Below, in pieces: positions 1-41,485 of a stretch of DNA of 41,485 nt (within the stretch, counting starts at the first letter, position 1; each line of letters begins with the position of its first letter). Position numbers and translations under genes: made by a program. The DNA is from a virus. The notes beneath the pieces were generated by a model. The model was not told the DNA's origin, did not search any database, and worked only from the letters and a program-made list of their open reading frames with translations. Location: UHGV virus genome UHGV-0203597, one strand, 5' to 3'.

Positions 1-36
1 GTGGATTGGTGCTGTTTTTCCATGATAGGGGTAATT

Positions 37-417
37 ATGAGAAAAGTATTTTTGATTTTTGGATTTATGCTTCTCGTTGGATGCCAGTCAGCTGCACAGT
101 TTGAAAGAAATATGCTTACGTGGCGCGGGCAGAGTATAGACGCAATGGTTCAGCAGTGGGGGTATCCTCAGGGAGAGCTTACATCTCCAGATGGAAACAG
201 AGTGTATGTTTACTCAAGCTCTGGTAGTTATAACGTACCACAAACCACAACGTATAATACTACGTCTAATCTAATTGGTAATACTATATATTCAAACACA
301 TACGCAACAACTGATGGCGGTTATACACTCCATTTCAGTTGCTCTGTTTACGTTGAGTTTGGTGCTGATAAGATTATTAAAAATGTTACATGGCGCGGTA
401 ATAATTGCGTTGCGTGA
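37..417 (+). CDS. Putative lipoprotein (moron; candidate superinfection-exclusion or lysogenic-conversion protein)
   Basis: ATG at 37 with AGGGG 6 nt upstream; signal peptide MRKVFLIFGFMLLVGC with lipobox LVGC; Ser/Thr/Tyr/Asn-rich mature part; AT-rich; no TTACC-N5-GGTAA site upstream; followed by hairpin terminator. Confidence 0.6.
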   Translation: MRKVFLIFGFMLLVGCQSAAQFERNMLTWRGQSIDAMVQQWGYPQGELTSPDGNRVYVYSSSGSYNVPQTTTYNTTSNLIGNTIYSNTYATTDGGYTLHFSCSVYVEFGADKIIKNVTWRGNNCVA

Positions 418-425
418 CATGTCAC
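414..425. repeat. 12-bp perfect palindrome GTGACATGTCAC, copy 1 of 3
   Basis: Overlaps the TGA stop of the lipoprotein gene; identical 12-mer at 22054-22065 and 24541-24552. Confidence 0.5.
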
Positions 426-426
426 A

Positions 427-450
427 GGCCGCTTTCGCGGCCTTGTTTTT
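427..450. terminator. Rho-independent terminator hairpin GGCCGC-TTTC-GCGGCC plus T-tract
   Basis: Perfect 6-bp GC stem, 4-nt loop, then TTGTTTTT on + strand; lies between convergent genes; same 18-mer repeated at 3783-3800. Confidence 0.6.
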
Positions 451-610
451 AACGAATGCCACCGCCACCCGGGCGGGAATCCGCAGAACGCCCACCGCAG
501 CGGGAGCCGTCAGCGGCAGTATCGCTGTCGTGCTGACAACGACCGGCAAAGGCCTGAGTTGAAGCTACCAGAGACAACAAAACGAACAGTGCAGCAAATG
601 CTTTTTTCAT
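449..610 (-). CDS. Small secreted peptide (53 aa, SPase I-type signal, two Cys in mature part)
   Basis: ATG at 610; MKKAFAALFVLLSLVASTQAFA then GRCQHDSDTAADGSRCGG...; last gene of the minus-strand operon after the YafO-like gene; weak RBS. Confidence 0.35.
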   Translation of the reverse strand: MKKAFAALFVLLSLVASTQAFAGRCQHDSDTAADGSRCGGRSADSRPGGGGIR

Positions 611-691: not shown

Positions 692-1204
692 CTATGCAGG
701 CTTTTTGGATTTGTACGAATAATCCCACGGATAAACATTTCTACTAAGTGGAGCTGTATTCGTTCGTTCATGAAATAATTTTGTGAAATTCAATACGGAA
801 TCCATCCAAACTTTTGCGTTAGCTTTGGTGTGTGCGGGCGGGTCCCAATAAGCTAGTAAGGCTGCATCTCTTATTTCATTGACTGCATATATGAGATATG
901 CGTTACTGGTTGGTTTTGGCCTGTAATTTCCTTGTTCATCAATCAATCCATATGACCACTCATCCCAACACTGTTCAGTACATGAGTATGAATATGATGC
1001 ATATTCACCAATATTGACATGAACCTTTCTGAGATGGAAGCCTAATACTTCGTCTGGTCTTTCAAAAAGAGTATCTTTTCCCAGATCAGGATGATGACCA
1101 TGACGCCAGTGTTGTTTAAAAGCATCTTTTAGCGAAATCAGAAAGTCATCAGTTTTAAACTCACCAGTAGGTATAACCTTCCCGCTATACTCACTCAAAA
1201 ACAT
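692..1204 (-). CDS. YafO-family toxin-like protein (paralog 1)
   Basis: 170 aa; motifs HWRHGHHPDLGKDTLF, RKVHVNIG, YLIY, AALLAYWDPPAH recalled as matching E. coli YafO (RDGxLPDxFGRD, VAHIHL, LVYC, AWLLIAILKPEPH); 14-nt overlap with upstream gene. Confidence 0.5.
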   Translation of the reverse strand: MFLSEYSGKVIPTGEFKTDDFLISLKDAFKQHWRHGHHPDLGKDTLFERPDEVLGFHLRKVHVNIGEYASYSYSCTEQCWDEWSYGLIDEQGNYRPKPTSNAYLIYAVNEIRDAALLAYWDPPAHTKANAKVWMDSVLNFTKLFHERTNTAPLSRNVYPWDYSYKSKKPA

Positions 1205-1517
1205 CGAATTCCTCTTCCTTCATATGCGTTTCTAATGAGTTAAGCTGGCGGAAAGATATCTCTTTTGATTCTGCAGATGAGAGCTTTTTTATCCGCTTTA
1301 TATTCTTTGTGATAGGAATAGACATTGTATGCACATCAGCGGATGCTCTTGGCTTTGTGCTGATAAAAATATGGCGCAATGCCGCATTTTCACTATTGAA
1401 CGAGCCAATAGCTGATTTACGTGCTACAACCTTACCAGTAAAAATACGACTCTTGCTACGCTTTGCATGAGTTCCGCTTCTTACCGGACCTCTCATCACG
1501 AATCCAAGTTTTGTCAT
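1191..1517 (-). CDS. Small basic protein, putative cognate partner/antitoxin of YafO-like paralog 1 (no family recognised)
   Basis: 108 aa, Lys/Arg-rich with acidic C-terminus EEEFDVFE; GGAGA RBS; overlaps toxin-like gene. Confidence 0.4.
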   Translation of the reverse strand: MTKLGFVMRGPVRSGTHAKRSKSRIFTGKVVARKSAIGSFNSENAALRHIFISTKPRASADVHTMSIPITKNIKRIKKLSSAESKEISFRQLNSLETHMKEEEFDVFE

Positions 1518-1640: not shown

Positions 1641-2336
1641 TCAGAAGAACCCTGCCTTGTCGTTGATGTACTCCGCGTGGGTCTGGATATCACGCAGGCA
1701 TTTGCTCACACCGACGATGTAGCAGAACATGGTGGTCAGCTCCGCCGCCGCGCCCGATACGTCGTGCCCGTCTTCCTGTAACTGGTTCAGCAGATTCATC
1801 AGCAGTGAGTTCTCCGTCAGGCCGAGAACACCAGACGGCGAGTGAATCAAACTGCGGTAGCCGGGCTTCAGTGGGGCGCTGTAGGTTTTGTTCTCTATCT
1901 TCATTGCCTGCATCACTGCTGATGCTGTGGCGTTGGCTACCTGGTCGGCAACCATCTTTATGCGTTCTTCCTGCGGGAGCGAGTTTTTAATGTAACTTCC
2001 GGTGCGGCGGATCTGAGGAAGAACCTCACCTGTAACCCATTTACGAAAGCGGTAGGGGATAGTGCCTGGTGTCACTGCGTCGCGGCAGCGGAGGATCAGT
2101 GTGTAGAGGCCTGACTCGGAGATGATGATCGATTCTTGCTCACCGCCAGGGGTGTCGGTTGAAGCGACGCCCTTCTCATCATCATCAAGTTTTCGAACAG
2201 CATCTCGATGGTTTGCTATGCCTATAGCCCGACAAACATCTGAAGCGATAAACCATGGCTCACCATTTATGACGATTACTCGTATATCGGCTTGGGATTC
2301 GAAAGAAAAAATGGACGTGCTTTTTGTAGCTGTCAT
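1641..2336 (-). CDS. BRO-N domain antirepressor-like protein with Ant-type C-terminal domain
   Basis: 231 aa; N-terminal motif PWFIASDVCRAIGI typical of BRO-N; C-terminal ~70 aa paralogous to the small protein at 3805-4062. Confidence 0.75.
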   Translation of the reverse strand: MTATKSTSIFSFESQADIRVIVINGEPWFIASDVCRAIGIANHRDAVRKLDDDEKGVASTDTPGGEQESIIISESGLYTLILRCRDAVTPGTIPYRFRKWVTGEVLPQIRRTGSYIKNSLPQEERIKMVADQVANATASAVMQAMKIENKTYSAPLKPGYRSLIHSPSGVLGLTENSLLMNLLNQLQEDGHDVSGAAAELTTMFCYIVGVSKCLRDIQTHAEYINDKAGFF

Positions 2337-2605
2337 AGTGGTTACCTTTTAGTCTGGTTAATCACCACTACCGACGCCAATCGGTTGGTGGTGAACTGTG
2401 CAGGGTTGGCGTAACCGGCTAAAAGGACCCGGCGCACCTTTCGGTGCCCCCACACAGCCCACCATAATACGAATGTGGCCGTGCTATACGCATAAAAAAA
2501 CCGCTTGCGCGGTGAATGCGCCTTTTAGTAATCCGGAACGCCAATCCCGGCACTGGATTTTGCCAGTGCCCGATTACTATGGCACAAGAGGAGTGCAATG
2601 TAAAT

Positions 2606-2745: not shown

Positions 2746-2757
2746 TTGGGGGTGCCC

Positions 2758-3285
2758 ATGAACACGAAGAGAGTTACAGCGATGAGGCATAGACGCTTTG
2801 CCTTGAAAAGGCCTGAAAAAGAAAAAGAGCAAGAGATGGTGATTGAAGCAGCCGCTTATGCTGCAGCTATGGCAACTGCTGATGCGATTAGAAATTATGA
2901 AGAAGAGGATAATAAAAATTCCTATCGCATTTACTTATATGAGAGCCGTCACAGTGTTACAGACCATGAAGCATGCCTAAAAAAACAAGGGGAAGTATTC
3001 CACTGCAACCTTGCTGAGTACATTAGGAATGAAATGGAAAGGAATTTGGCTTTATCTCATTTTGGATACAAGAGTCAGGAAAGTGGTTTCGCTGGCTTTA
3101 AGGATAAAATTAACGAAAGGTGGCAACGTTTATACAAGCCACTTCAAGTTGATGAGAAAACTCATCAACTTGTTATGCATGAGGTCCCAAAGATGTCCGT
3201 AGAGAAATCCCATGCAATCTCGCGCAGGATGTTTGCACGCACTGCTGAAGACATGGCTCAGGAGCTCTACGACGATGCCGAATAA
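2758..3285 (+). CDS. Hypothetical charged helical protein, putative partner of YafO-like paralog 2
   Basis: 176 aa from ATG 2758 (alternative 2746); acidic C-terminus ELYDDAE; stop overlaps start of downstream toxin-like gene; unrelated to the 108-aa partner. Confidence 0.4.
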   Translation: MNTKRVTAMRHRRFALKRPEKEKEQEMVIEAAAYAAAMATADAIRNYEEEDNKNSYRIYLYESRHSVTDHEACLKKQGEVFHCNLAEYIRNEMERNLALSHFGYKSQESGFAGFKDKINERWQRLYKPLQVDEKTHQLVMHEVPKMSVEKSHAISRRMFARTAEDMAQELYDDAE

Positions 3286-3781
3286 ATTCCAGGGGTTGGT
3301 TCACCCTGGAATTTTTGGGAAGGACCCTGAGCTAATACCTATCAAAAACGCGTTCATAGATCACTGGCGCTACGGTCATCATAAGGATTTCGGAAAGGAC
3401 ACTCTGTTTCGAGATCCACCGAAAGAGATGCTGGAATATCACATACGCCACGTTCACTTAAACATCGGAAACTATACTGACAAGTTTGGTGAGAGCGGTA
3501 CGGAACAATGCTGGAAAAACTGGGCGTCTGGGAAGAAAGACAAGACCACTAACAAGCATAAAAAGATCCCAACCAGTGACGTGTATGTGATTTATCTGGT
3601 CACATCTGAACGCCATGCCTTCCTTCTGGATTATTGGGATGAACCAGCGCATAAGACAGTAGAAATTGACGAGCAGAAGCAAAAATTAGTTGTCGAGTGT
3701 GACAGAATTTTGCGGCTGAAAAAGTTAGAATCCATGCCGCGCGATGCAAGTTTGTGGGACCCAGAATTTTACGACTGTTAA
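3275..3781 (+). CDS. YafO-family toxin-like protein (paralog 2)
   Basis: 168 aa from MPNKF; motifs HWRYGHHKDFGKDTLF, RHVHLNIG, YVIY, AFLLDYWDEPAH align with paralog 1. Confidence 0.5.
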   Translation: MPNKFQGLVHPGIFGKDPELIPIKNAFIDHWRYGHHKDFGKDTLFRDPPKEMLEYHIRHVHLNIGNYTDKFGESGTEQCWKNWASGKKDKTTNKHKKIPTSDVYVIYLVTSERHAFLLDYWDEPAHKTVEIDEQKQKLVVECDRILRLKKLESMPRDASLWDPEFYDC

Positions 3782-4257: not shown

Positions 4258-6909
4258 ATGACGGTCTCAACCGAAGTTGACCACAACGAATACACCGGTA
4301 ACGGAGCTACGACATCATTTCCGTATACCTTCCGTATTTTCAAAAAATCCGACCTGGTTGTTCAGGTGTCTGACCTGAACGGGAACGTAACAGAATTGGT
4401 TCTGGATACTGACTACACAGTAACCAATGCTGGAGGATATAATGGCGGTAATGTAATTCTGTCGAAGGCGTTGGCTAACGGTTATCATATTTCTATATCA
4501 CGAGAGCTCCCGGTTACGCAGGATACTGATTTGCGTAATCAGGGTAAGTTCTTCGCTGAGGTACATGAAGACGCGTTCGATAAACTGACAATGCTTATTC
4601 AAAAGTGTTTTTCATGGATGAGGTTAGCACTTATAAAACCAAGCATTCTGGCTAACTATTATGATGCAAAAAATAATAAGATATCAAATCTAGCAAATGC
4701 CACTGACAGAAACGATGCTGTCAATAAAGGTTATGTTGATGATCTTTTTACTGGAGGTGTAACGCCTACACCTAACAGCGCTAAAAACGATATTTTTACA
4801 AATCACCAAAGAAAGATTGTAGCTACGATGCCGCTTCTTTTTCCTGAATATGATGCGATTATGGCTGCTAACCCGTCAGCAACTTATATGTATCCTCAAG
4901 GATTCTGCGTTAGCGAAGATTTGATATACATCACTTATCCATTTGAGCCTAAACAGACGAATAATGTCGTCGCAGTATTTAACATATCTGGTATTTATCA
5001 AGGTTATTTCTATGTTCAGGCTGGCGGCCCAGGCTTCGCTGCTGAAGGAATCGTGGTTACGTCAGACTATGGCCCCAAAAAAATGTTTGTTGGTCACACA
5101 AACGGAATACTGCGTGAATTTAATATGGAGGGGGCATTATACGGAAGCAATCTGCCTCTTGTACAAAACCATGATGTTGGATTATTCAACCAGTTCAGCT
5201 ACAGAAGAGGTATATGGCTCGTTGAGCAGAATGCGCCAGAAGTAGGACAGAAAATCACAAGAACTGTACTTGCAGTGTTCGACAGTGGTTTCAATCGCCT
5301 GTCAACTATAACGCTGCCGTTACATGATGTTGGGTATGTAACTAAAAGCACCTCACCTTATGCGCCTTATTTCAACAAGCGTCAGGGTATTGCGGTAGGT
5401 GATAACTACTTTGTCTGCGGCTATGGCGGCTTCATAGCTGATGGGGCAGGAAGCGCAGGATATAACGAATATCAGGGCAGCAAAGTTTTTAACCCTGACG
5501 GTACAAAGCGAACTGAATCAATGCTTCATCCTCAGGCCATGATGGATTTAATGAAAGCCGCAGGATTGAACGTCACTCGCATAGAAAATGAAGGCGTTTG
5601 TGTTTCTCAGGATGGAAAATCCATTTATTCACTTTACATTCATCAGGAAAGAACTGGCTCTGAACCTTACAATTCAGGTTTGGTTATTTTCGAAGATTTC
5701 TCCACTGATAAAGATGCTATCGATTTTACACCTGCATCCAGGCTTTACCGCGGATTTGATATCGATCACGCGAGCATTGGGGTATATCCCCGTAGTGCGA
5801 AGGGGATTGTTAACCCTGTAGATGGTACGTTGTTCACTAACATGACTGAAATTCTTCGCTATATGCAGGAGATGAGTCAGAAGGCATTTAATTTTTACAC
5901 AGGGACTGTCAGCATTGCTGATATATCTGGCGTGGCAATCCCTTCCAGCACATATGTTGAAATACTGAATGCGAATAATCAGACTTTTATAGTCAACTAT
6001 TATTCATCTGATAGTGGCATTAGTTATTTGGTTGCAACTAATCCTTCTGGTGACTTTGTATTTGTGCGCCAGCGACCGGCACAGTGGGCATCTAACTTAA
6101 CCATTCAGCAAAACGCAGATCCTGATACAAACCAATTAAACCGCATCACTGCATCATCATATGCCGGTGCAACTACAAACTCTCAGAAAATATTGGTCCT
6201 TGACCAGCAGGCTACAGCTAGCGCAAATAGCTTGGTATTGGGCGGTAGTTCTTCTGTGTTTAGGTCTGCCACCACGGTGGATATTGCATGCAACAGCGAC
6301 CCGACAGCATTGGGAGGAACCATACGCTGGCGGTTTTATGATACAGGTCTTCGCCCGTTTGCTGACAATACCTATAATTTTGGTCAGGCATCGTTTCGTA
6401 TTAAAGACGCCTACTTTGCAAATGCCCCAACCGTTTCATCAGATGCCACGCTGAAAACCAATCCCGAGGCAATATCAGATTTAAGTGAAATGCTTTCTTC
6501 TGATAGAGACAGCATTCTTGATGCCTGGGGCGATATTTCTGTTGTGGCGTATCGATGGCTCGACGCTATATCCATGAAGGGCGATGGTGCCAGATGGCAT
6601 TTTGGCGTCATGGCTCAGCAGGTAAGGGATGTATTCTTGGCGCACGGAATTGATGGAACCAGATTTGGCCTTCTTTGCTATGACGAGTGGGATGATATTT
6701 TTGAGCCGGTAATCGCGACTAAAGAGATTACCGATACGTCTGGTGAGTTGGTCACCGTCGAATATGACACCGGAGAACAGAGGCTGGTTAAAAAAGCGGG
6801 TAGTTCATGGGGTATACGGCCTGACCAGTGCGCTTGGCTTGAGGCTGCATATCAGCGCCGTCGATGCGATCGTATTGAAGAGCGACTCGAACTATTGGAA
6901 TCAAAATAA
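4258..6909 (+). CDS. Tailspike / tail fibre with T7 gp17-like N-terminal domain and C-terminal S74 intramolecular chaperone
   Basis: 883 aa; N-terminus resembles T7-type fibre anchor; C-terminus has RWHFGVMAQQV and GLLCYDEWDD recalled as S74 auto-processing chaperone motifs; central domain unassigned. Confidence 0.8.
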   Translation: MTVSTEVDHNEYTGNGATTSFPYTFRIFKKSDLVVQVSDLNGNVTELVLDTDYTVTNAGGYNGGNVILSKALANGYHISISRELPVTQDTDLRNQGKFFAEVHEDAFDKLTMLIQKCFSWMRLALIKPSILANYYDAKNNKISNLANATDRNDAVNKGYVDDLFTGGVTPTPNSAKNDIFTNHQRKIVATMPLLFPEYDAIMAANPSATYMYPQGFCVSEDLIYITYPFEPKQTNNVVAVFNISGIYQGYFYVQAGGPGFAAEGIVVTSDYGPKKMFVGHTNGILREFNMEGALYGSNLPLVQNHDVGLFNQFSYRRGIWLVEQNAPEVGQKITRTVLAVFDSGFNRLSTITLPLHDVGYVTKSTSPYAPYFNKRQGIAVGDNYFVCGYGGFIADGAGSAGYNEYQGSKVFNPDGTKRTESMLHPQAMMDLMKAAGLNVTRIENEGVCVSQDGKSIYSLYIHQERTGSEPYNSGLVIFEDFSTDKDAIDFTPASRLYRGFDIDHASIGVYPRSAKGIVNPVDGTLFTNMTEILRYMQEMSQKAFNFYTGTVSIADISGVAIPSSTYVEILNANNQTFIVNYYSSDSGISYLVATNPSGDFVFVRQRPAQWASNLTIQQNADPDTNQLNRITASSYAGATTNSQKILVLDQQATASANSLVLGGSSSVFRSATTVDIACNSDPTALGGTIRWRFYDTGLRPFADNTYNFGQASFRIKDAYFANAPTVSSDATLKTNPEAISDLSEMLSSDRDSILDAWGDISVVAYRWLDAISMKGDGARWHFGVMAQQVRDVFLAHGIDGTRFGLLCYDEWDDIFEPVIATKEITDTSGELVTVEYDTGEQRLVKKAGSSWGIRPDQCAWLEAAYQRRRCDRIEERLELLESK

Positions 6910-6997: not shown

Positions 6998-7408
6998 GTG
7001 GTTACCATGAATGGCACGGTTACGGCGGATTCACTGAATCAAGGGTTAAGCTTGGGTGCGCTGGCCTCTGTCGTCTACGGCGTTCCGCCAGAGGTGGCTC
7101 TCGGTGCTCTGGCTGGTGCGGTAATATTTGTTACCTCTGCTGTAGAGTATCCTGTTCGTCGTCGTGTACTCTTGTCGATACTCAGCTTTCTTTGTGGTCT
7201 TCTCTTTTACAAACCAACAACATCAATTCTTATCGGAATAGCCAGCATGATACCTACCATCACGCAGGACTCTTTCGAGAAAGGGATTGTTTTCTCTGCT
7301 GGCGCATTCGTGTCAGCAATTGTCGCAGTGCGAATTGGTATATGGCTCTATCACCGTTCTGATAATCCACGCCAGTTAATTCCTGGGAGAAAAGGCGATG
7401 GTAACTAA
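6998..7408 (+). CDS. Multi-pass membrane protein, holin-like (about 4 TM segments)
   Basis: 136 aa hydrophobic; directly upstream of second holin-like gene and endolysin; start ambiguous (6998 or 7007). Confidence 0.45.
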   Translation: MVTMNGTVTADSLNQGLSLGALASVVYGVPPEVALGALAGAVIFVTSAVEYPVRRRVLLSILSFLCGLLFYKPTTSILIGIASMIPTITQDSFEKGIVFSAGAFVSAIVAVRIGIWLYHRSDNPRQLIPGRKGDGN

Positions 7409-7706
7409 TGAGCTTGTTTTGCTTATCACCAATGCAATTATTTGTACTGGCATAGCAATTCGCGTTGTCACATTCCGGCGTAACGGCTCTCAACATCGAA
7501 GATGGGGAGGGTGGCTTGCTTATTTCCTTATTGTTGCTGCGGCCAGTATTCCTGTTCGTGTCGCCTATGCAATCTGGTTACGTACGCCAATGGCTGTGGA
7601 TTTATCTGAGGTCATTATCAACGCTGTCATGCTTGCCGCGGTTATTAAAACACGCGGTAACGTTGTTCAGATTTTCAAAACATCGAGGTCTAAACATGGA
7701 GATTAA
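7398..7706 (+). CDS. Holin-like membrane protein (about 3 TM segments, charged C-terminus)
   Basis: 102 aa; overlaps endolysin start by 11 nt. Confidence 0.5.
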
Positions 7707-8325
7707 ACAATTCCAGCGAGCTGCTGGTATTAGCGAGGCTCTGGCCGCACGCTGGTTCTCGCATATAACTTCTGCGATGAAAGAGTTTGGTATCAGAAAA
7801 CCCGAAGATCAGGCAATGTTTATTGCTCAGGTCGGGCATGAGTCTGGTGGCTTCACCAGGTTGCAGGAGAATTTCAATTACAGCGTCACCGGACTGGCTA
7901 ACTTCGTTCGTGCCGGTCGTCTTACTCAGGGACAGGCTAACGCATTGGGTCGTCGTGCAGGCGAGCCACCATTGCCACCTGAGCGCCAGCGTGCGATTGC
8001 CAATCTGGTGTACAGCAAACGCATGGGGAACAATGCCTCTGGTGATGGCTGGAATTACCGTGGCCGCGGACTTATCCAGATTACCGGTTTGAATAACTAT
8101 CGTGATTGCGGAAACGGCCTGAAAGTGGACCTGCTGGAGAATCCTGAACTGTTGGCGCAGGACGAATACGCGGCTCGTAGCGCGGCGTGGTTCTTCTCCA
8201 GCAAAGGTTGCATGAAGTATACCGGCGATATTGCACGTGTAACTCTGATTATCAATGGTGGCAGGAATGGCATCGACGACCGGCGCGTGCGGTACATCAC
8301 TGCCAGTAAGGTGCTGGCGGTATGA
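7696..8325 (+). CDS. Endolysin, glycoside hydrolase family 19 (chitinase-like) type
   Basis: 210 aa from MEIKQ; motifs [12 protein letters not shown] and [12 protein letters not shown]; no N-terminal SAR segment. Confidence 0.8.
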
Positions 8326-8819
8326 TCTGGGCATTCGCAAAAGCATACCGGAAACAGTTGGTTGTCATGGCGATGCTTGCTGTTCTGGTCATATCAGGAG
8401 TTGTTGCCTGGAATGTGCATGGCAGCCGCCAGTACGATGCCGGGTATGCTCAGGCGAAGGAAGATCAGAAACAGGCTGATGATAAGTTAAGGTCACAGCG
8501 TGAGCAGGAGAAAACACAAATTGAACGTGAAGCACAATCCCGTATCGATGCGGCGCGTGCTGATGCTGAGTATGCTAATTCCGCTGCTGACAGCATGCGC
8601 GCCGAGCTTGACAAAACCAGGCGGCTCGCCGAACACTATACCGGATCTTTCCCCCCTGGCACGCCAGCCAGCAAGGTCATCGGTGTGCTCGCCGACATGC
8701 TTGAAGAAAGCAACCGAGTTTACAACGCAACAGCAGCTGAGGCTGAAAAGTATCGTATCGCAGGGGAATTCTGCGAGCAGCAATACGATTCACTGAAGAA
8801 GCAAAAATCGTGGCACTGA
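8322..8819 (+). CDS. Rz-like inner-membrane spanin
   Basis: 165 aa; N-terminal TM, coiled-coil-like periplasmic part; follows endolysin with ATGA overlap. Confidence 0.6.
8548..8796 (+). CDS. Rz1-like outer-membrane lipoprotein spanin embedded in +1 frame of Rz
   Basis: [17 protein letters not shown] with lipobox LTAC; Pro-rich mature part; entirely inside the Rz gene. Confidence 0.45.
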   Translation: MRRVLMLSMLIPLLTACAPSLTKPGGSPNTIPDLSPLARQPARSSVCSPTCLKKATEFTTQQQLRLKSIVSQGNSASSNTIH

Positions 8820-8969
8820 TTTCCGGTGACGGTATATAAAACGGTACGGTGAAAATCATGTTACAGAAAGTTGTTACCAGTCAATTGGTTATGCATGCCG
8901 TAAATAATTGAGTGGGAATGATTAACAGCTAACTCATAGCAACTCATTCCTATTCAGATACTAATTTAA

Positions 8970-11971: not shown

Positions 11972-12080
11972 TTAATCCAACCCTCTCTGAAAATTAATGC
12001 CAGCAGATAAAGCCATGCTGAAACAGAGGCCAGGAATAAGTACCATCCTGACCATTTGCTCCAGTGCCTTAGCAGCGCAC

Positions 12081-14623: not shown

Positions 14624-14670
14624 TAATTATGCGTATATGGTTTGATGTCAATAGATATGAGTTAAAAAAA

Positions 14671-22287: not shown

Positions 22288-22292
22288 ATACT

Positions 22293-30361: not shown

Positions 30362-30417
30362 GCCTCGCGAATCAGACAAGGGGCTTCGGCCCCTTTATTG
30401 CAGGAGTATAGAAACTT

Positions 30418-33494: not shown

Positions 33495-33958
33495 TGATCG
33501 ATGTTCAAATTATTCCCGCAACCGAAGAGCATCTTCAGATGATTTTGCCGGATGTTCGTCAGGCTGATATTGACGAACTGTATGCGGTATCACTGATGAC
33601 TACCGAAGATGCGCTGCGTGTTGGTCTGCGTACTGCGACTATGGCCTGGTCAGGATTTGCGAACGGAGAACTGGTAACCATGTTTGGCGTATCTCCGGCG
33701 TCAATGATCGGTGGCAATGGTACGCCATGGCTGGTAGGAACCAGCCGTATTGAAAAATATCAGAAGACATTTCTTCGCCACTGCCGCCCTGTATTGCAGC
33801 AGATGCTGGCAGTTTATCCGCGTCTGGAAAACTACGTCGACGAGCGAAACCATGTTGCCAAAGCATGGCTCCACTGGCTTGGATTCAGGCTTGAAGAAGC
33901 CGCGCCTTATGGTGCTCTTGGTCTTAATTTCCACAGATTTCACATGGAGAGAAAATAA
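33494..33958 (+). CDS. Internal virion protein (T7 gp13 position)
   Basis: 154 aa; TGATG coupling. Confidence 0.4.
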   Translation: MIDVQIIPATEEHLQMILPDVRQADIDELYAVSLMTTEDALRVGLRTATMAWSGFANGELVTMFGVSPASMIGGNGTPWLVGTSRIEKYQKTFLRHCRPVLQQMLAVYPRLENYVDERNHVAKAWLHWLGFRLEEAAPYGALGLNFHRFHMERK

Positions 33959-34497
33959 TGTGTAACCCAGCCATCGCTTTGGTTGCCGTCACAGTGGCAT
34001 CCACAGCCGCGTCAATGTACAGCCAGAGCAAGCAGGCAAAATACCAGTCAGCCATAGCTGATCGGAATGCTGAAATTGCTGAAGCTCAGGCACAGGATTC
34101 AATCAATCGTGGGAATATTGAAGCGGATCAGCGTCGTCGTGAAATGCGTCAACGCTCAGGCACTGCGGCGGCCACTATGGGGGCTACCGGTGCGGAATTA
34201 AGTAGCGGAACAGCTCTTGACGTTTTTGCGGATAATGCTCAGTTCGGCGCTCTTGATGCGTTAACGACAGTGAATAATGCTCAGCGTGAGGCATATGGGT
34301 ATCAGGTTCAGGGAATGAATGCTCAGGCACAGGGGGCTGCTGCTCAGTCGGCTGCTAAATCATCGATGACCAGCACTTTGTTAACAGCACCACTAAAAGC
34401 ATACGGTGCATACCAGATGGGCGGAGGAACGTGGAGCCCATTCTCTCAGAAGGCTGCGCCGATTTCTGCTGCTGTTGGCACTCCAACCGGTCGATAA
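33958..34497 (+). CDS. Internal virion / ejection protein (T7 gp14 position)
   Basis: 179 aa; N-terminal hydrophobic segment, Ala/Gln-rich. Confidence 0.45.
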   Translation: MCNPAIALVAVTVASTAASMYSQSKQAKYQSAIADRNAEIAEAQAQDSINRGNIEADQRRREMRQRSGTAAATMGATGAELSSGTALDVFADNAQFGALDALTTVNNAQREAYGYQVQGMNAQAQGAAAQSAAKSSMTSTLLTAPLKAYGAYQMGGGTWSPFSQKAAPISAAVGTPTGR

Positions 34498-34509
34498 GGG
34501 GATAATAAG

Positions 34510-37023
34510 ATGCCAGTTGTACCAACAACATCGGGCCGTCAGGTTCAGAGCAGAGGGATTTCGACGCAGGGATTCTCATCGTTTCAGACGCCAAATGTCG
34601 GTGATGTACTTGGCGATGTTGCAGAGCAATATGCAGGTATTATTGCGCAGGCAAAACAGCGTGCGAATGTTGCTATGGCTCAGGATGCTTCTCTTAGCTT
34701 AAGCCAGATAAGCAGCGATCTGCTGAATAACCCTGAAACAGGTTTGCTTAACCTGAAAGGGAAAAATGCTATTGGAAAAGGTCAGGAGTATACGCAGCAG
34801 TTTGATGCCCAGGTCGAGCAACTGGCTATGTCGCTGCCGGATGAACAGGCTCGTAATGCTTTCATGCAGCAGGCGCAGCAGCAGCGCATTCAGTTCACTA
34901 CGCAGGCCGGGCGGCACGAGATAGGGCAAATAAATGCCTACGAAGAAGGCCAGTTTCAGGCGACGCTGCTGAACAATGGTAAAAATGCCGCAGCATTGTA
35001 TGGCGACAACGCCGCATACGTATTGGCTAATAAGCAAACTTTCCAGCAAATTGAGGATTACGGCATTGCGCATGGCTGGAGCGACGAGCAAATCCAGGCC
35101 AAGAAAATCGAGTTTAAAGAGAAGGTTGCTGATGCAGCATTGTCCCAGTGGTCGGCAAACAATGCGACCGCATTCATCCAAAGTAATGGCGAGTTAAGTG
35201 ATACTGCTGCTGGAGCTAGCCGTGCTGTAGCAGATAGTGATTCTTCCGAGCGTGCCCGTGGCATACGCAACAATAACCCAGGAAATCTCGAATACAGCAA
35301 AACCAATCCGTGGGTAGGCCAGACCGGTGATGATGGTCGATTTGCTAAATTCGAAACACCTGAACACGGGATTCGTGCATTAGGGCGGAACCTGATGTCG
35401 TATCAGAGGCAGGGTATTGATACCGTCAGCGAGATAATTAATCGCTGGGCACCGCCTACTGATAAAAATGACACTATGTCGTATATCAAAGCAGTGTGCG
35501 AACAACTTGGCGTTTCTGCTGATGAGCCTCTCGATGCATCTAATCCTGATACCCTGAAGGCGCTTTGTGCAGCCATTATCCATCATGAGAACGGTAGCCA
35601 GCCATACAGTGATCAGCTGTTAAGTGCTGGTGTCAGTGCAGCACTTGGTTTATCAACAATTCCAACCAACACCAAACGCTATACCGGTAATGCAGCATTC
35701 GATGCGGCATCTCCTGAGGCGCAGGCAAGTTTTATGCGACAGGCGGATCAACTGCGTCGGCAGCAGCAGGCTGAATATAAAACGATGATTGACAGCCAAG
35801 TTCGCGATGCGACAGCTGCGTATATGCGTGGCGTTGAATTTCCTAACCCACCTGGTGAGGCTGATTTTATTGCAGCTTATGGAGTCAGAGAAGGAAACCT
35901 GCGATATACCGAGTTCAGAAATACGCAAATCGCCGGACAGTATATAGGCTCTTTCCGCAACATGCCGACAAGCAGCATTACAGCATATGTTGAGCAATTA
36001 CGCCCGGATACTGGTGAGACAGGGGAGGGTTATGCGGCACGAGCCGCTCTTTATGACAACGTTGTGTCGGCTGCAAGTCAGGTGATAAAGCAGCGACAGG
36101 CTGATCCTGTACAGTTCTCTCTTGCCGCCGGACAGGCAAAGCCTATCGACATGAGCAATAAGGATAACTTTGGACAGAGCGTTGCCTTGCGTGCTGCTCA
36201 GGTCAGTGACCTTGCTAAGTCATATGGCACTCCACTGACGTTCTTTTCCAAAGACGAGGCCAATCAGATCGGTGTTTTCTTTCGTAATGCGCCCGTTTCC
36301 CAACAGGCAGCATATCTCGATACCATCAGGCAGAGCACTGGTGGTGGGCAGGTGTATATGTCAGCACTACAGCAGATCAGTGCCAACGCTCCATCTGCTG
36401 CCGTTGCCGGGATACTGATGGATAAGCCAGGTGGTATTTTGGCAGAAAAAAACTGGTTTAATCCGGATGTTTCCGTGTCTCCTGAAACCGCTGCGCAGAC
36501 AATTCTTGCTGGCGCGGCGGCTCGTAAAGGTACTGATGACGCGAAAGGTATTCCGATGCCTAAAGATGCTGATCTTCGCCTTGAGTTTTCTGACATGGTG
36601 AAGGATGCATTTGCTGGTGATGCTCAGGGGGCATCAATGGCATACGAGATCGCAAAGGACTATTACGCTGGTGTGATGGCGAAAAAAGGCGTGGTATCAG
36701 GCGAAATTGACAATGATATCTGGAAACAGGCTGTTAACGTAGCTACAGGTGGCGTGCATGACTATAACGGAATGGGGAATGTTCTTTTGCCTTGGGGAAT
36801 GTCTGCAGAGCAATTCGATAAGCAGGTTAATCAGGTTTGGAATGAACAAGTTGTTGGCACAGGGATAAAAACACCGCCTGGTCAGTATGGTTTGCAAAGT
36901 TACGGCGATAGTCAGTACCTGGTGAAACTTGGTACTGGTTATCTGCTAAAAGATGATGGTTCTCCCGTTGTTCTTGATCTGACACAGAAGCGTCAGAGAT
37001 TCTCCGGAGATATTCCGCAATGA
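34510..37023 (+). CDS. Internal virion / ejection protein (T7 gp15 position) with possible cell-wall hydrolase segment
   Basis: 837 aa; segment GIRNNNPGNLEYSKTNPWVGQ...RFAKFETPEHGIRA looks like a conserved enzymatic motif (unverified). Confidence 0.5.
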   Translation: MPVVPTTSGRQVQSRGISTQGFSSFQTPNVGDVLGDVAEQYAGIIAQAKQRANVAMAQDASLSLSQISSDLLNNPETGLLNLKGKNAIGKGQEYTQQFDAQVEQLAMSLPDEQARNAFMQQAQQQRIQFTTQAGRHEIGQINAYEEGQFQATLLNNGKNAAALYGDNAAYVLANKQTFQQIEDYGIAHGWSDEQIQAKKIEFKEKVADAALSQWSANNATAFIQSNGELSDTAAGASRAVADSDSSERARGIRNNNPGNLEYSKTNPWVGQTGDDGRFAKFETPEHGIRALGRNLMSYQRQGIDTVSEIINRWAPPTDKNDTMSYIKAVCEQLGVSADEPLDASNPDTLKALCAAIIHHENGSQPYSDQLLSAGVSAALGLSTIPTNTKRYTGNAAFDAASPEAQASFMRQADQLRRQQQAEYKTMIDSQVRDATAAYMRGVEFPNPPGEADFIAAYGVREGNLRYTEFRNTQIAGQYIGSFRNMPTSSITAYVEQLRPDTGETGEGYAARAALYDNVVSAASQVIKQRQADPVQFSLAAGQAKPIDMSNKDNFGQSVALRAAQVSDLAKSYGTPLTFFSKDEANQIGVFFRNAPVSQQAAYLDTIRQSTGGGQVYMSALQQISANAPSAAVAGILMDKPGGILAEKNWFNPDVSVSPETAAQTILAGAAARKGTDDAKGIPMPKDADLRLEFSDMVKDAFAGDAQGASMAYEIAKDYYAGVMAKKGVVSGEIDNDIWKQAVNVATGGVHDYNGMGNVLLPWGMSAEQFDKQVNQVWNEQVVGTGIKTPPGQYGLQSYGDSQYLVKLGTGYLLKDDGSPVVLDLTQKRQRFSGDIPQ

Positions 37024-38822
37024 GTTACTTTGGCCTTAATCCAGTAAACCAGAATCAGCAGCTTGACGAAGCAGCATCAAATCCAGCTGGCTTTAACAGC
37101 GATGTTGGTTTTTTCGACAATGCTGTAGGAGCGGCATTGTCTGGTTTGTACTCCGGGCTGGTGGCAAAGCCAGATCAGTTGCTCTGGGCAGGGATGGATA
37201 AAATCGTATCCCCGATTGCTCAGTTTGTTAACGAAAACACCTCGCTCAATGACACTTCAGTTTCATACATTGCCGAGCAGAGAAAACTAGCAGAGCAGCA
37301 GGTTAAGCGGCTGACGCCTGATGCCGCGACAACCGGAACCGCCGGGCAGGTTCTTTATGGGTTGTTCGATATGGGCGGGCAGGCTGTTGTCGGTACAACG
37401 CTCGGTGGTCCTGTCGGAGGTGCAGCGGCGGTAACTTCGCTACAGGGTTTTTCTGAGTTTGAACGGCTGACAGCACAGGGTGTTGATTTCAGGACGGCGC
37501 AGGAAGCGGGATTAGTGCAGGGCATTACTGCTGGTGCCGGAACACTGATCCCTATGAGCCTCGGGTTACGTGCTGGTGGTGCGCTGGCGGAAGGTGTGGC
37601 GGCTCAGCTTGCGCGGACGGGTGAGAGTTCAGTGCGACGCGCCGCAGCAACAGCAGTACGTGCAACGCCAGATATTGCCTATGCCGCAGGTACAAATATT
37701 GCGTTCGGTATGGCACAGCGTGGGCTTACTGCAAAAACGCTTCGTGATGGTGGCTATAGCGAAATGGCTAACCAGTATGATGTGTTGGATCGACAGGCAA
37801 TTGCTATTGATGCTGTTCTTGGGGTGGCGTTTGGTGGTGTCGGCAGATTTATTAACTCTCGCGGCGAGTCTACAAGCGCACCAAATTTTTCACAAGTTGA
37901 TGTTGATGCTGCACTGGCGGCGAATGCCGCTCATCATGCTGAAATTGATATTGCGCCCGGCGTGCCGATCAACGTGCTTTCGCGCAATTCTCACATTCAG
38001 GCTCTGCGAAAAGCTATGTCTGATGTTAGCCAAGGGAGACCTGTAGACGTTGCCAGCATTGTTGAGTCTGCATCTTTCAGTGAAATTCCTGGGCGCAAGA
38101 GTCTGCTGTCTCAGGCAGTTAATGAGGCTCTGTCATCTGTAGATGATGGAGTAACGGCGCGCTCTATAGAAAATCGGTTGCTTGAAGAACAGGCCGCGCA
38201 GCTTTTGCCGCGTGGAGATAGACAGGTTTACCAGTCTGAAATCGCTAATAGCCAACGAATTATTGAAAATCTCACTGAACAGCGTGCACAAATTCTTGCA
38301 GAAGATCCAACCGGTAGCGGTAAAGCTTTGTCTCGTGCTCGATCAGATAAACAGGCCAGACTTCGCGATATTGATCAACGAATCCGGCAGGCACAAGAAC
38401 GCCTGGAATTTTCCCGTAACGCGTTGGCACCGCACGAGCCTGGCGGTCAGTTTTTTGAAGCTCGAGCAGAACTGGCTCGGAGACAGCAGGCAGAAAGTGA
38501 ACTTAATGCTCAGGCTGTTTCATTCTATAAAACAGCAGAGGTCAGGACGCCAGACGAAGTAGCTCCTTTTGAGCCTGATAAAATATTGCAACAGGCAGAA
38601 CAAAAAATGATGGCGGATCAGGCGGGAGATATTGATCTGCGCATAGCTGAAGACTCGCTGCTTGAATCACCTGACATGATAATCACCGTGCTGGATGATG
38701 ATGGTAATCCACAATCGCGCAGCGCGCGTGAAGTACTGGATGAAGCGAACAGGGAAAGTGAGCAGGCAATACAGGATTCAAGCCTGTTTGATGTAGCTGT
38801 GGCGTGTTTCTTGAGAGGTTAA
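37020..38822 (+). CDS. Internal virion / ejection protein (T7 gp16 position, part 1)
   Basis: 600 aa; ATGA coupling; Gly/Ala-rich N-terminal region. Confidence 0.45.
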   Translation: MSYFGLNPVNQNQQLDEAASNPAGFNSDVGFFDNAVGAALSGLYSGLVAKPDQLLWAGMDKIVSPIAQFVNENTSLNDTSVSYIAEQRKLAEQQVKRLTPDAATTGTAGQVLYGLFDMGGQAVVGTTLGGPVGGAAAVTSLQGFSEFERLTAQGVDFRTAQEAGLVQGITAGAGTLIPMSLGLRAGGALAEGVAAQLARTGESSVRRAAATAVRATPDIAYAAGTNIAFGMAQRGLTAKTLRDGGYSEMANQYDVLDRQAIAIDAVLGVAFGGVGRFINSRGESTSAPNFSQVDVDAALAANAAHHAEIDIAPGVPINVLSRNSHIQALRKAMSDVSQGRPVDVASIVESASFSEIPGRKSLLSQAVNEALSSVDDGVTARSIENRLLEEQAAQLLPRGDRQVYQSEIANSQRIIENLTEQRAQILAEDPTGSGKALSRARSDKQARLRDIDQRIRQAQERLEFSRNALAPHEPGGQFFEARAELARRQQAESELNAQAVSFYKTAEVRTPDEVAPFEPDKILQQAEQKMMADQAGDIDLRIAEDSLLESPDMIITVLDDDGNPQSRSAREVLDEANRESEQAIQDSSLFDVAVACFLRG

Positions 38823-38827
38823 ATTAA

Positions 38828-41302
38828 ATGAGACAGGAATGTATACAAGCGGTCCAGCAGGCGGCGCAGCGCACGTTAACGGCGCGAGAAATACAGAACA
38901 TTGAAGACCGCATTTATCGAAATATGCGCTCCATTGCTCGTGATGACCCGATGTCGTGGAGACAACTTTCCGAATCAGAGCGGCTATATCGTGCAGCACA
39001 ATTGGCATCTGAAGAATTACAGCGAGAAGCGGCATTAAAGAAACGTCGTGTGGCCCTCACTATAGCCGCACGTCAGAGATTGGATAAATTTATCAATAGC
39101 TATCAAGGGGCTGATGGGAAACTTGGCGCTCTTAACCGTACTATTGCTTTTAATGCAGACGGTAAATCGAATTTCCTCTCTGTTGAGTCCAGAACAAAAG
39201 CCACTCGTGATTATGCATTGAGTCAATTGCAAGAGGCATTTGAAGCAGTTGATCCTCGCTTTTTTGGCCTGTTTGAAGATGAAGCTGGCGTGCGTGACCT
39301 GGTATATGAAATGCGAGGGCAAAATACTGGCAATGCTAAAGCAAGAAAAGGTGCTAAGGCGTGGAGAGAAGTTACAGAGCTGCTGCGCCGCCGGTTTAAT
39401 GATGCTGGTGGGGACATTGGCTATCTCGAAAACTGGGGGATCCCTCAACATCATTCTATGGAAAAGGTTGGGGCGGTATCAAAGGATAAGTGGGTTGGCG
39501 ATGTTATAGGTAAGCTGGATCGCAAATATTATACCCGAGCCGATGGACAACTGATGAACGATGCCGAGTTGTCTGCATTTCTTGGAGAGGCTTATAACAC
39601 GATAGCTACTGGTGGGCTGAATAAGCTTACTGATACCGGAATGCGAATTTCCGGCGCACGTGCTAACCGTGGTAATGCATCACGACAGATACATTTCAAA
39701 AATGCAGATTCCTATCTCCAATATCAACAACTTTATGGTGATCGCTCTCTATGGGAAATCATGGTCGGTCACCTGGAAGGTATCAGTAAAGATATTGCTC
39801 TGGTGGAAACATATGGTCCAAACCCCGATCATGTTTTCCGCTCCCTTCTTGATCAGGTTAAGGCAGAAACGGCAACAGCTAACCCTAGTAAAACCGGTAA
39901 AGTCGAGCGGCTGGCGAACAACACAGAGAATCTGTACAACTTTATTTCCGGAAAGACACAGCCTGTAGCGAATCCGCACATCGCGCGATGGTCTGACAAT
40001 ATCCGCAACTGGCTGGTTGCCAGCAGACTCGGATCCGCGTTGCTGTCATCGTTCTCTGATCTTGGAACCATGTATCTGTCTGCGAAGGTTACCAACCTTC
40101 CAATGAACCAGTTATTCCGCAACCAGCTTGAAGCTATGGACCCAACGAACCGTACAGAACTTGCGCGGGCGCGCCGCGCTGGTCTGGCGATGGAATCTCT
40201 ACTTGGCAGCGTTAACCGCTGGGCGATGGATAATATGGGGCCGTCAGTGTCTCGTTGGGCGGCAACGGCGGTAATGCGTGCCAGTGGGCTTACAGCATGG
40301 TCAGATGCGCACAAGCGCGCCTATGGCGTAACCATGATGGGAAGCCTGGGAGAAGTAGTGTCACGGACACCAGACCTTCGTAGCCTCGATGACTCTGATT
40401 TTCGTATCCTGAAAAGCAAAGGGATTACTGACACAGACTGGAGCGTATGGAAGCTGGCGCAACAGGAGGACTGGGGGAACGGTAATAATACGATGCTGAC
40501 ACCGGAAAGCATTATGCGTATCCCTGATTCAGCAGTTAAACATCTTGGTGAGCCTGAACGCGTGAAATTTGAGGCAATGCGTAAACTGCTCGGTGCCGTA
40601 ACTGAAGAAGTTGATATGGCTGTTATTACACCGGGAGCACGTGAGCAACTGATAACCGGTTCTGGTATTCAGCGTGGAACATGGAAAGGTGAATTAACGA
40701 GAAGTGTTTTCCTGTTTAAATCGTTCCCTATCTCGGTGGTTATGCGTCACTGGCATAGAGCTATGGGGATGTCGTCTGCTGGTGGGCGTGCGGCATATAT
40801 AGCAACGTTTTTAGCAAGCACAACCATGCTTGGTGCTCTTTCCATGCAGATTACTGATCTTATTAATGGGAGAAATCCAAAGGAAATGACCGGTGACCAC
40901 ATGGTTAAATTCTGGATAAATGCATTTTTAAAAGGTGGTGGGGCAGGGTTGTACGGTGATTTTCTCTTCTCTGACCACACTAGGTACGGGAGCGGCGCGC
41001 TGGCGTCGATGCTTGGCCCGGTAGCTGGTCTGGTTGATGACGTAGTGAAGATAGCTCAGGGCATACCTCTAAATGCTGTGGAAGGGAAGAATGAGCAGAC
41101 TGGTGGTGATCTGGTCAAGCTGGGGAAAGGTCTGATGCCAGGTGCGAATCTCTGGTACTTGAAGGCGGCTCTCGATCACATGATCTTTAACCAGATGCAG
41201 GAGTATTTTTCACCAGGCTATTTGCGTAAAATGGAGCAACGTTCGAAGAAAGAGTTTAACCAGACATACTGGTGGCGACCACAGGATGTCACTCCGCAAT
41301 AA
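38828..41302 (+). CDS. Internal virion / ejection protein (T7 gp16 position, part 2)
   Basis: 824 aa; GAGAGG RBS; last large structural gene before the accessory island. Confidence 0.45.
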   Translation: MRQECIQAVQQAAQRTLTAREIQNIEDRIYRNMRSIARDDPMSWRQLSESERLYRAAQLASEELQREAALKKRRVALTIAARQRLDKFINSYQGADGKLGALNRTIAFNADGKSNFLSVESRTKATRDYALSQLQEAFEAVDPRFFGLFEDEAGVRDLVYEMRGQNTGNAKARKGAKAWREVTELLRRRFNDAGGDIGYLENWGIPQHHSMEKVGAVSKDKWVGDVIGKLDRKYYTRADGQLMNDAELSAFLGEAYNTIATGGLNKLTDTGMRISGARANRGNASRQIHFKNADSYLQYQQLYGDRSLWEIMVGHLEGISKDIALVETYGPNPDHVFRSLLDQVKAETATANPSKTGKVERLANNTENLYNFISGKTQPVANPHIARWSDNIRNWLVASRLGSALLSSFSDLGTMYLSAKVTNLPMNQLFRNQLEAMDPTNRTELARARRAGLAMESLLGSVNRWAMDNMGPSVSRWAATAVMRASGLTAWSDAHKRAYGVTMMGSLGEVVSRTPDLRSLDDSDFRILKSKGITDTDWSVWKLAQQEDWGNGNNTMLTPESIMRIPDSAVKHLGEPERVKFEAMRKLLGAVTEEVDMAVITPGAREQLITGSGIQRGTWKGELTRSVFLFKSFPISVVMRHWHRAMGMSSAGGRAAYIATFLASTTMLGALSMQITDLINGRNPKEMTGDHMVKFWINAFLKGGGAGLYGDFLFSDHTRYGSGALASMLGPVAGLVDDVVKIAQGIPLNAVEGKNEQTGGDLVKLGKGLMPGANLWYLKAALDHMIFNQMQEYFSPGYLRKMEQRSKKEFNQTYWWRPQDVTPQ

Positions 41303-41312
41303 AAGGAGATAT

Positions 41313-41438
41313 GATGGTTCAAATAACTTTTATTGTACTAATATGTGCAGCGTTTTTATGCTATTCATACATTTTGATAAAAATGGGTTTCAATTGGAAT
41401 CTCTGTTGCGTGCAGCGGCATGGTTCGGCTTTGTAGTA
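41313..41438 (+). CDS. Small single-pass membrane protein (41 aa)
   Basis: AAGGAG RBS; MMVQITFIVLICAAFLCYSYILIK...; AT-rich; below ORF-track cut-off. Confidence 0.3.
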
Positions 41439-41485
41439 TTCGGAATTGTATTGTTCGGAAGAATAATAAAATAACTAGTTAATTT

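Follow-up and report, generated by a model that had tools for sequence, protein, structure and literature searches.

How a genome whose tail genes recall those of T7 comes to carry the lysogeny genes of a lambdoid phage, and whether such a hybrid is complete, are the questions raised by UHGV-0203597, a viral sequence of 41,485 bp (hereafter the window, meaning the whole stretch that was analysed). With high confidence, we regard the window as the complete genome of a temperate Escherichia coli podovirus of the genus Uetakevirus (the epsilon15/phiV10 group), in its excised circular form with the phage attachment site (attP) restored, opened at an arbitrary point of an accessory island. The union of T7-like tail genes with lambda-like lysogeny genes is the architecture that defines this genus; it is already known and makes no new mosaic. 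A sequence-only reading of the window had implied novelty on this point, and here it does not hold: the T7 relationship has been published (Hardies et al., 2016, PMC4819975), and of 5426 complete E. coli genomes, 265 contain 80% or more of the 25-kb stretch at window 8924-33900. The apparent T7/lambda hybrid is thus the standard design of a common, well-studied group of E. coli and Salmonella prophages and not a discovery. What the window offers is a clean and full annotation of the excised form: attP, origin iterons, a genome-wide operator set and an antirepressor controlled by a C4 RNA are all mapped.

The taxonomic assignment comes from whole-genome comparison. When the two halves of the window were compared separately by megablast with 50,697 phage records, the structural half (25001-41485) was 95-97% covered, at about 97.8% identity, by phiV10, vB_EcoP_ZX5 (ZX5), O157 typing phages 9 and 10, phiv142-3 and PAS61, with Tyrion and epsilon15 more distant (75-82%). 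The other half was a patchwork, 40-60% covered by these phages of the epsilon15/phiV10 group. The matching records are classified as Uetakevirus, and nucleotide identity over shared regions was 95-98% to phiV10 (NC_007804) and ZX5 (MW722083). The International Committee on Taxonomy of Viruses (ICTV) places a phage in a genus at a nucleotide intergenomic similarity of at least 70% to a member. By an approximate, one-directional blastn calculation of identity multiplied by coverage, the window scored 73.8% against phiV10, 71.9% against ZX5, 33.8% against epsilon15 and 0% against T7; the first two values lie above the genus threshold. Nothing contradicts the assignment to Uetakevirus.

Annotations were transferred by tblastn from phiV10 and ZX5 and then checked independently against Pfam, PHROGs, NCBIfam, PADLOC, PDB sequences and Rfam. 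The genome holds 59 protein genes, all with intact open reading frames (ORFs), and one tRNA, at 48.7% G+C and 93.6% coding. Compared with temperate podoviruses, as the sequence-only reading had suggested, it proved collinear with phiV10 and ZX5 from the terminase through the late regulator, and its structural proteins are 95-100% identical to theirs. From the terminase onwards the genes are terS, terL, a small divergent gene, tRNA-Arg, portal, a Bbp19-like gene, a 231-aa scaffold-like protein, the major capsid protein, a Bbp16-type cement protein, a 111-aa protein, adaptor, nozzle, internal virion proteins (IVP) A and B, and proteins of 837, 600 and 824 aa. The accessory island, which holds the window's end and start, comes next, followed by the tailspike, two holins, endolysin and spanin, and then by attP, integrase, phosphatase, methyltransferase, PerC, AlpA, RecT, a RecE-like nuclease, repressor, a cro-like gene, initiator, P, ea/nin-like genes and a gp49-type regulator. 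From the adaptor, nozzle and tailspike genes, and from electron microscopy of relatives, we infer a short-tailed virion with six tailspikes.

The likeness to phiV10 and ZX5 extends to gene order throughout, an identical repressor and the attP core at guaA, and ZX5 also matches the window identically in its antirepressor and end-junction sequence. Apart from identity-by-coverage values of only about 72-74%, the window differs from both in the receptor-binding part of its tailspike, in an extra YafO-like cassette, in HNH and Mom-like genes, in a Ser/Thr phosphatase where they have a DUF1382 gene, and in the absence of a gp10 gene; phiV10 in addition carries oac (an O-antigen acetyltransferase gene) beside its tailspike, which the window does not. 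Salmonella phage epsilon15 (NC_004775), the type species, has the same architecture and attP core and a homologue of almost every structural gene, at only 34% identity by coverage; unlike the window, it carries genes for serotype conversion and another repressor, and its annotation includes no lambda-P gene.

That the window is whole follows from the way its ends meet. The sequence-only reading had placed both ends in one island and had taken the window for the whole genome, and both points are borne out. The ends fall inside the accessory island, which follows the last internal-protein gene and precedes the tailspike, and show no terminal overlap with each other. The last 800 nt and the first 549 nt form one unbroken alignment to circular ZX5, with every base identical where they join. 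A 48-mer across this junction was found in 11 IMG/VR contigs, all of them collinear to either side of it, and the prophage of E. coli Nord58 (NZ_CP139846) passes through the join at 99.97% identity.

The attachment site tells the same story. Its 17-bp core, intact and flanked by the lysis genes and int, is identical to the attP published for ZX5, phiV10 and epsilon15 (PMC9782041). Because this attP is both intact and internal, the window represents the excised form, opened at an arbitrary point. Near-identical prophages sit in the chromosome between guaA and yfgI. The lysis-attP-int stretch is matched by 569 E. coli genomes, nearly all of these matches being chromosomal, and those that start at the att core all adjoin guaA, among the matches listed. 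As a separate observation, in a few chromosomes (e.g., GPEC1186) the attP region is contiguous, possibly a sign of tandem or alternative insertions.

Several other readings of the window deserve consideration. It might be an integrated prophage, or a fragment cut from a chromosome, with host DNA beyond its ends or part of the phage missing. The nearly identical prophages between guaA and yfgI invite this view, but a prophage should end in attL and attR beside int and the lysis genes, and here phage DNA surrounds the att core on either side. The window contains every module and no host gene. Given the intact attP and the continuity of the junction in ZX5, Nord58 and the IMG/VR contigs, we rejected this explanation as highly improbable. 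An extrachromosomal, circular phage-plasmid would also account for a circular attP form, and RefSeq lists related whole genomes as circular E. coli "plasmids" of 41 kb (pHL15EC-2, NZ_CP079771, and NZ_CP079768). The simplest explanation of such records is that the culture sequenced contained phage DNA, either replicating or already packaged. The window has no partition or plasmid-replication genes; with its integrase and attP intact, the matching genomes nearly all chromosomal, and the integration of ZX5 shown experimentally (PMC9782041), we consider a phage-plasmid very unlikely and set it aside. To an assembly chimera joining the T7-like half of one phage to the lambda-like half of another we give almost no credence. 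The halves do resemble very different phage groups, and the accessory and early region has a somewhat reduced G+C content; yet the same architecture occurs in the plaque-forming isolates phiV10, ZX5 and EC.W1-9 and in the 265 complete E. coli genomes, and single prophages cover both module boundaries at 99.9% identity or more. These collinear complete genomes led us to reject the chimera.

The layout could instead be complete and the phage defective, a cryptic prophage whose capsid is unstable through loss of gp10 (the "capsid staple" of NCBI annotation) or some other lesion. The precise deletion of gp10 speaks for this, as does the state of the closest relative, the Nord58 prophage, which has a frameshifted initiator and a split fibre gene. 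In the window all 59 ORFs are intact. EC.W1-9, with the identical deletion junction, forms plaques and has normal 60-nm heads, and the junction is common to at least 60 E. coli genomes. Moreover, the staple density of epsilon15 has been refitted with a 130-aa protein (PMC9207676), the length of the gp8/Bbp16 homologue, which the window keeps. We therefore judge a defective phage unlikely.

A few points qualify our reading of a complete, excised Uetakevirus genome. The case that the window equals the whole record rests on the end-to-end junction and not on the source record itself. Headful packaging would fit the terminase type and the arbitrary start, and TerL found no PDB relative by sequence. 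Pfam checks of the early and accessory proteins gave no match to N or Q antitermination families. A terminator lies at 22293, between the gp49-type regulator and terS.

The missing gp10 bears on a wider question, since the natural deletion touches a disputed assignment in a classic cryo-EM structure as well as the NCBI name "capsid staple protein." At the scar, the gp10 ribosome-binding site is fused to the start codon of the adaptor gene. The phiV10 counterpart, p13, is a homologue of epsilon15 gp10 (PDB 3J40_N, E 6e-21), and neither the rest of the window nor EC.W1-9 yielded a gp10 homologue. Of the 17 full-length phage relatives, EC.W1-9 alone has the same deletion junction. Among E. coli genomes, 519 have the flanking sequence and 433 have gp10, with the identical contiguous junction in at least 60; by subtraction of totals, gp10 is absent from about 14-17% of the genomes carrying this prophage type. 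The Bbp16 homologue, by comparison, was kept in all seven genomes compared. EC.W1-9 (PP445227) is a plaque-forming phage with 60-nm heads that has been stability-tested (bioRxiv 10.1101/2024.06.28.601134). Given this natural gp10-null lineage with a plaque-forming member, the deletion does not amount to a missing essential module.

By AlphaFold fitting, Hryc and Baker (2022, PMC9207676) concluded that the 111-aa gp10 was probably misassigned to the staple density of epsilon15, which a 130-aa protein fits. Epsilon15 gp8, a Bbp16 homologue, is 130 aa long and so matches the refitted protein in length. On balance we find it probable, with some reserve, that the "gp10 capsid staple" (NCBI, PDB 3J40) is a dispensable accessory and that the Bbp16-family protein is the real cement. 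The deletion would lend independent genetic support to the reassignment of Hryc and Baker. On EC.W1-9 itself, we observed that the therapy preprint (bioRxiv 10.1101/2024.06.28.601134) states that there is no integrase, while GenBank PP445227 annotates an integrase (34301-35551) and a repressor (39460-40044); the phage is a Uetakevirus.

Having placed the genome, we sought to establish how far its relationship to T7 extends. Searches with T7 structural proteins by blastp and tblastn against the window gave nothing significant, the best local matches being at E of about 0.03 (gp14 C-terminus, fibre N-terminus). Since pairwise BLAST was negative, homology was assessed by Pfam, fold search and literature. 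T7 gp8 and gp14 match the same Pfam models (PF12236, PF24072) as the window's portal and 179-aa gp14-family protein. The adaptor model matched, in Foldseek, the connector of phage Carin-1 (E 4e-17), T7 gp11 (7BOX_M, E 1.9e-6, probability 1.0, template modelling score 0.57-0.59) and KP32 tail tubular protein A. For the nozzle there was no match to Pfam PF25675; epsilon15 gp12 has a strong published profile-profile match to T7 gp12, and the relationship of the Uetakevirus tail and internal proteins to T7, including nozzle, IVP-A and IVP-D, comes from the same work, as do our homology assignments for the internal proteins (Hardies et al., 2016, PMC4819975). Pfam held no family for the adaptor, the nozzle or the three large internal proteins, and NCBIfam added nothing. 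Demonstrable homology to T7 is thus limited to portal, adaptor and gp14 (this analysis) and to nozzle, IVP-A and IVP-D (published).

The sequence-only reading had described a structural gene order on the T7 pattern, which stands, with some caveats. Portal, assembly protein, capsid, adaptor, nozzle, internal proteins, fibre and lysis genes follow one another as in T7 (Autographiviridae), with portal, adaptor, nozzle and gp14 in order. The terminase, in contrast, lies upstream of the portal, where that of T7 comes after the fibre; the capsid protein belongs to PF20911 and not to PF21703 (Gp10A-like); the scaffold-like protein lacks PF05396; and about 4.4 kb of accessory genes separate the tailspike from the internal-protein genes. 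Published trees place the terminase and capsid of epsilon15 with siphoviruses (Hardies et al., 2016, PMC4819975). The window also differs from T7 in being temperate, in having no nucleotide similarity to it, and in the replication and transcription enzymes: tblastn with T7 RNA polymerase (gp1), DNA polymerase and primase-helicase gave no match in six frames at E of 1 or below. All ORFs of at least 250 aa have other assignments, leaving no large ORF for an RNA polymerase, and the earlier remark that no phage RNA polymerase is present is upheld.

The virion module finds likenesses in two solved virions of other hosts, Bordetella phage BPP-1 for the capsid protein and Bbp16 cement pair and phage Carin-1 for portal, connector and nozzle (8CK0, 8CK1); both differ in their early genes, and the virion module alone is held in common. 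The capsid protein is of the epsilon15/BPP-1 family, and the capsid and Bbp16-family cement genes are adjacent, the arrangement that marks a BPP-1-type capsid. Its best PDB match is to BPP-1; we observed that the window protein lies nearer to this Bordetella phage (3J4U_A, E 1e-128) than to the type phage of its own genus (epsilon15, 3J40_A, E 2e-85). The 231-aa scaffold-like protein gave no Pfam, PDB or NCBIfam match, to a protease family or any other. Its AlphaFold model, of low confidence (mean pLDDT 48), is disordered over residues 1-82 and all-helical over 99-210, which favours the earlier reading as a scaffold without proving it. TerL has no Pfam family match.

The temperate side of the genome was also as described beforehand: integrase, immunity region, lambda P-like replication and recombination modules are all present (Pfam, gene transfer). 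Each had been said to occur once, and at sensible coordinates the list is sound, except that the YafO-like cassette has a paralogous second copy and that immunity has a second element, based on RNA. As in lambda, P22 and Stx phages, the order runs from att-int through recombination, repressor/cro, an initiator with internal iterons, P and accessory genes to a late regulator, and the window shares with these lambdoid phages a lambda-P family protein, RecET-type recombination, divergent repressor/cro genes with flanking operators and ea-type genes. It differs from them in having operators over about ten promoters and not at OL and OR only, in lacking a recognisable N or Q, in the position of its lysis genes after the tailspike, and in a virion module unrelated to that of lambda. 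Nucleotide sharing with true lambdoid phages is limited to ea-type segments of 100-500 bp, which have 90-98% identity with Stx-converting, P22-like and P1/P7 phages.

A 15-bp palindrome, TTACC-N5-GGTAA, occurs in ten perfect copies genome-wide, all intergenic (1560, 2606, 4139, 14609, 14671, 15383, 17708, 17770, 22330 and 25529), with near-copies at 2731, 9057, 15431, 15768 and 22348. Allowing up to two mismatches, 44 copies were counted against 11.9 expected, a number reached in none of 100 shuffles. Outside the immunity region, copies precede the antirepressor, tailspike, int, the DUF1064 operon, terS and the head operons, a distribution that agrees with the repressor sites annotated in epsilon15. 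The predicted regulon of the repressor seems to be genome-wide, with direct silencing of nearly every operon, the late and structural ones included, unlike that of lambda. The cro-like gene has no Pfam match, and its function is therefore assigned from its position.

A further layer of control is suggested by the two RNAs in the leader of the antirepressor operon: the C4 and isrK RNAs, as predicted, resemble the P1 immI system and may form a second, RNA-based layer of immunity. At the same locus, the 37-aa "ash family" ORF annotated in ZX5 is probably the RNA itself. In ZX5, repressor and antirepressor have both been tested by overexpression, and overexpression of the antirepressor gene, ORF4, pushes the phage towards lysis (PMC9782041).

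These features suggest a working model of the phage's life cycle. In the lysogen, the CI-like repressor would shut all operator-bearing promoters at once, and the Bro-N antirepressor, held down by both the repressor and the C4-type antisense RNA, would flip the switch once expressed. Replication would start at the iterons inside the initiator gene, with the lambda-P-type protein recruiting host DnaB, and the late genes would be transcribed by host RNA polymerase. TerS and TerL would then fill a capsid of HK97-fold subunits cemented by the Bbp16-type protein; the T7-type portal, adaptor and nozzle would bear six tailspikes, and the ejected internal proteins would build a channel across the envelope.

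The mosaicism that the genome does bear lies within the genus. From 20290 to 41485 and on into 1-8923 (30.1 kb), the window is 99.97% identical to the Nord58 prophage, and from 3805 to 19247 (15 kb) it is 99.9% identical to the prophage of E. coli Ecol_AZ146 (NZ_CP018991), so that only about 1 kb (19247-20290) is covered by neither. The Nord58 prophage shares the gp10 deletion and both YafO-like cassettes; it differs in being integrated and in its frameshifted initiator and split fibre gene. The AZ146 prophage, also integrated, differs in keeping gp10. Since each matches one half only, the window reads, on the evidence of these alignments, as a recent recombinant of the two types, with a Nord58-type late half and an AZ146-type early half. 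Recombination between prophage types would swap whole halves at 99.9% identity or more.

Features of the 41,485-bp window, with coordinates, strand and supporting evidence
Feature	Coordinates	Strand	Evidence
Lipoprotein-like moron, 126 aa, signal peptide ending LVGC	37..417	+	100% identical to ZX5 39053-39433; phrog_3716, unknown function
Terminator after lipoprotein-like moron	426-443		
First two-gene cassette: 108-aa protein (1191..1517) and 170-aa YafO-like putative toxin (692..1204)	692..1517	-	phrog_5933, phrog_1651
Bro-N antirepressor	1641..2336	-	PF02498 E 2e-21; 100% identical to ZX5 ORF4
C4 antisense RNA, antirepressor operon leader	2384..2469	-	Rfam RF01695, 77.7 bits (gathering score 45), full length
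isrK-like small RNA, antirepressor operon leader	2494..2569	-	Rfam RF01394, 72.3 bits (gathering score 50), full length
Second two-gene cassette: 179-aa protein and 189-aa YafO-like paralogue	2746..3781	+	phrog_9503, phrog_1651; absent from ZX5 and phiV10
Tailspike, 883 aa, with an attachment domain of epsilon15/phiV10 type at the N-terminus, an exchangeable receptor-binding part and an intramolecular chaperone at the C-terminus	4258..6909	+	
Lysis cassette: two holin-type proteins, GH19 endolysin, Rz-like spanin	7007..8819	+	PF16931, PF05449, PF00182, PF10721
attP core, ATTGAGTGGGAATGATT: last 15 nt of E. coli guaA plus TT	8907..8923		17 bp common to both ends of the Ecol_AZ146 prophage
P4-type tyrosine integrase that includes an arm-binding domain	9114..10370	+	PF13356, PF00589, PF22022; 99-100% identical to phiV10/ZX5 integrases
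Leftward accessory genes: Ser/Thr phosphatase, MT-A70 methyltransferase, PerC, small membrane protein, AlpA-type regulator/excisionase candidate	10373..12329	-	PF00149, PF05063, PF06069, PF05930
RecT	12379..13347	-	PF03837 E 2e-44
RecE-like PD-(D/E)XK nuclease	13317..14138	-	PF12684 E 1e-22
Immunity region	14609..15445		OL-like operator pair (14609, 14671), OR-like trio (15383, 15400, 15431)
Repressor gene	14743..15327	-	HTH_3; 100% identical to phiV10 and ZX5 repressors
Cro-like first gene of rightward operon	15482..15712	+	100% identical to phiV10 p41; divergent from repressor across operator trio
Initiator, HTH_36 and DnaT domains	16079..16888	+	PF17948, PF13730
Lambda-P family helicase loader	16885..17670	+	PF06992 E 1.5e-56
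ea/nin-like region: DUF1064, HNH, Eae-like, Mom-like, DUF551, DUF4222	17788..22287	+	
Epsilon15 gp49-type regulator, last gene of ea/nin-like region	21716..22057	+	
terS; terL	22284..22994; 22991..24466	+	PF03592; phrog_2; TerL 99% identical to phiV10 TerL
tRNA-Arg (TCT)	25130..25206	-	ARAGORN, Rfam; annotated in related prophages too
Portal, T7 gp8 family	25855..27534	+	PF12236 E 9e-188; Carin-1 portal 8CK0_A E 2e-179
Scaffold-like protein, 231 aa	27830..28525	+	phrog_458 "protease"; NCBI "peptidase"
Major capsid protein, HK97 fold, GP7 family	28540..29526	+	PF20911; BPP-1 major capsid protein 3J4U_A E 1e-128
Bbp16-type cement protein	29578..30015	+	PF21190; BPP-1 cement protein 3J4U_H E 4e-26
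Scar of clean gp10 deletion (107-111-aa "gp10 capsid staple" of phiV10, ZX5, epsilon15)	30410..30418		phiV10 8134-8457 replaced by a few bases
Adaptor ("tail tube A", 201 aa)	30418..31023	+	AlphaFold pLDDT 85; T7 gp11 fold
Nozzle ("tail tube B", 823 aa)	31023..33494	+	Carin-1 nozzle 8CK1_A E 1e-217
Internal virion (ejection) proteins: IVP-A, IVP-B (gp14 family, 179 aa), 837-aa with muralytic domain, 600-aa, 824-aa IVP-D homologue	33494..41302	+	PF24072; phrog_308, 418, 992, 1145, 684

The tailspike appears to be an exchanged part in its own right. Over its first 161 aa it is 76% identical to the phiV10 fibre, and residues 161-883 are 71% identical to proteins of Kayfunavirus (T7-family) phages. 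A Peptidase_S74 match was found (E 3e-12), while an N-terminal match to Phage_T7_tail stayed below threshold (21.6 bits against a cutoff of 25.2). The similarity points to an exchange of spikes between temperate and virulent podoviruses. With regard to the receptor-binding part (4738-6906), we observed that the Kayfunavirus relatives are lytic wastewater phages and that there is about 42% identity to spikes annotated as endo-N-acetylneuraminidase. The interval between tailspike and lysis genes (6909-7007) holds no O-antigen-modifying gene. In relatives this slot is occupied by oac (phiV10), serotype-conversion genes (epsilon15) or an acyltransferase gene (pHL15EC-2); to judge from its gene content, the phage is probably not serotype-converting by way of this slot.

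In the accessory island, the two YafO-like cassettes are divergent and flank the antirepressor. Their phrog_1651 proteins are 46% identical to each other, with unrelated upstream partners. The Pfam YafO_toxin match of the protein at 692..1204 is weak, and PGAP names its homologues "YafO family toxin." PADLOC gave no credible defence-system match for the accessory cassettes, returning generic HNH and very weak matches only. The cassettes may be toxin-antitoxin or exclusion morons, for which they are candidates. Separately, near-identical terminator hairpins, GGCCGCTTTCGCGGCC, were seen at 420-451 and 3776-3807 (84% identity over 32 nt), each behind a different accessory gene, in the manner of a portable moron terminus.

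The origin iterons, at about 16340-16480, consist of an 18-bp unit in 3.8 copies with further copies of the core CCCRAAAACGGGA. Their location within the initiator gene is shared with lambda; the initiator itself differs, being of the DnaT/HTH_36 type and not of the lambda-O family. A 12-bp repeat, AACCAGTCATAT, follows the iterons in 2.4 copies (region 16340-16510). Finally, the accessory genes absent from phiV10 and ZX5 include a Mom-like DNA-modification protein (19786-20316, phrog_1384), an HNH endonuclease (18138-18746) and a calcineurin-type Ser/Thr phosphatase (10373-11032).

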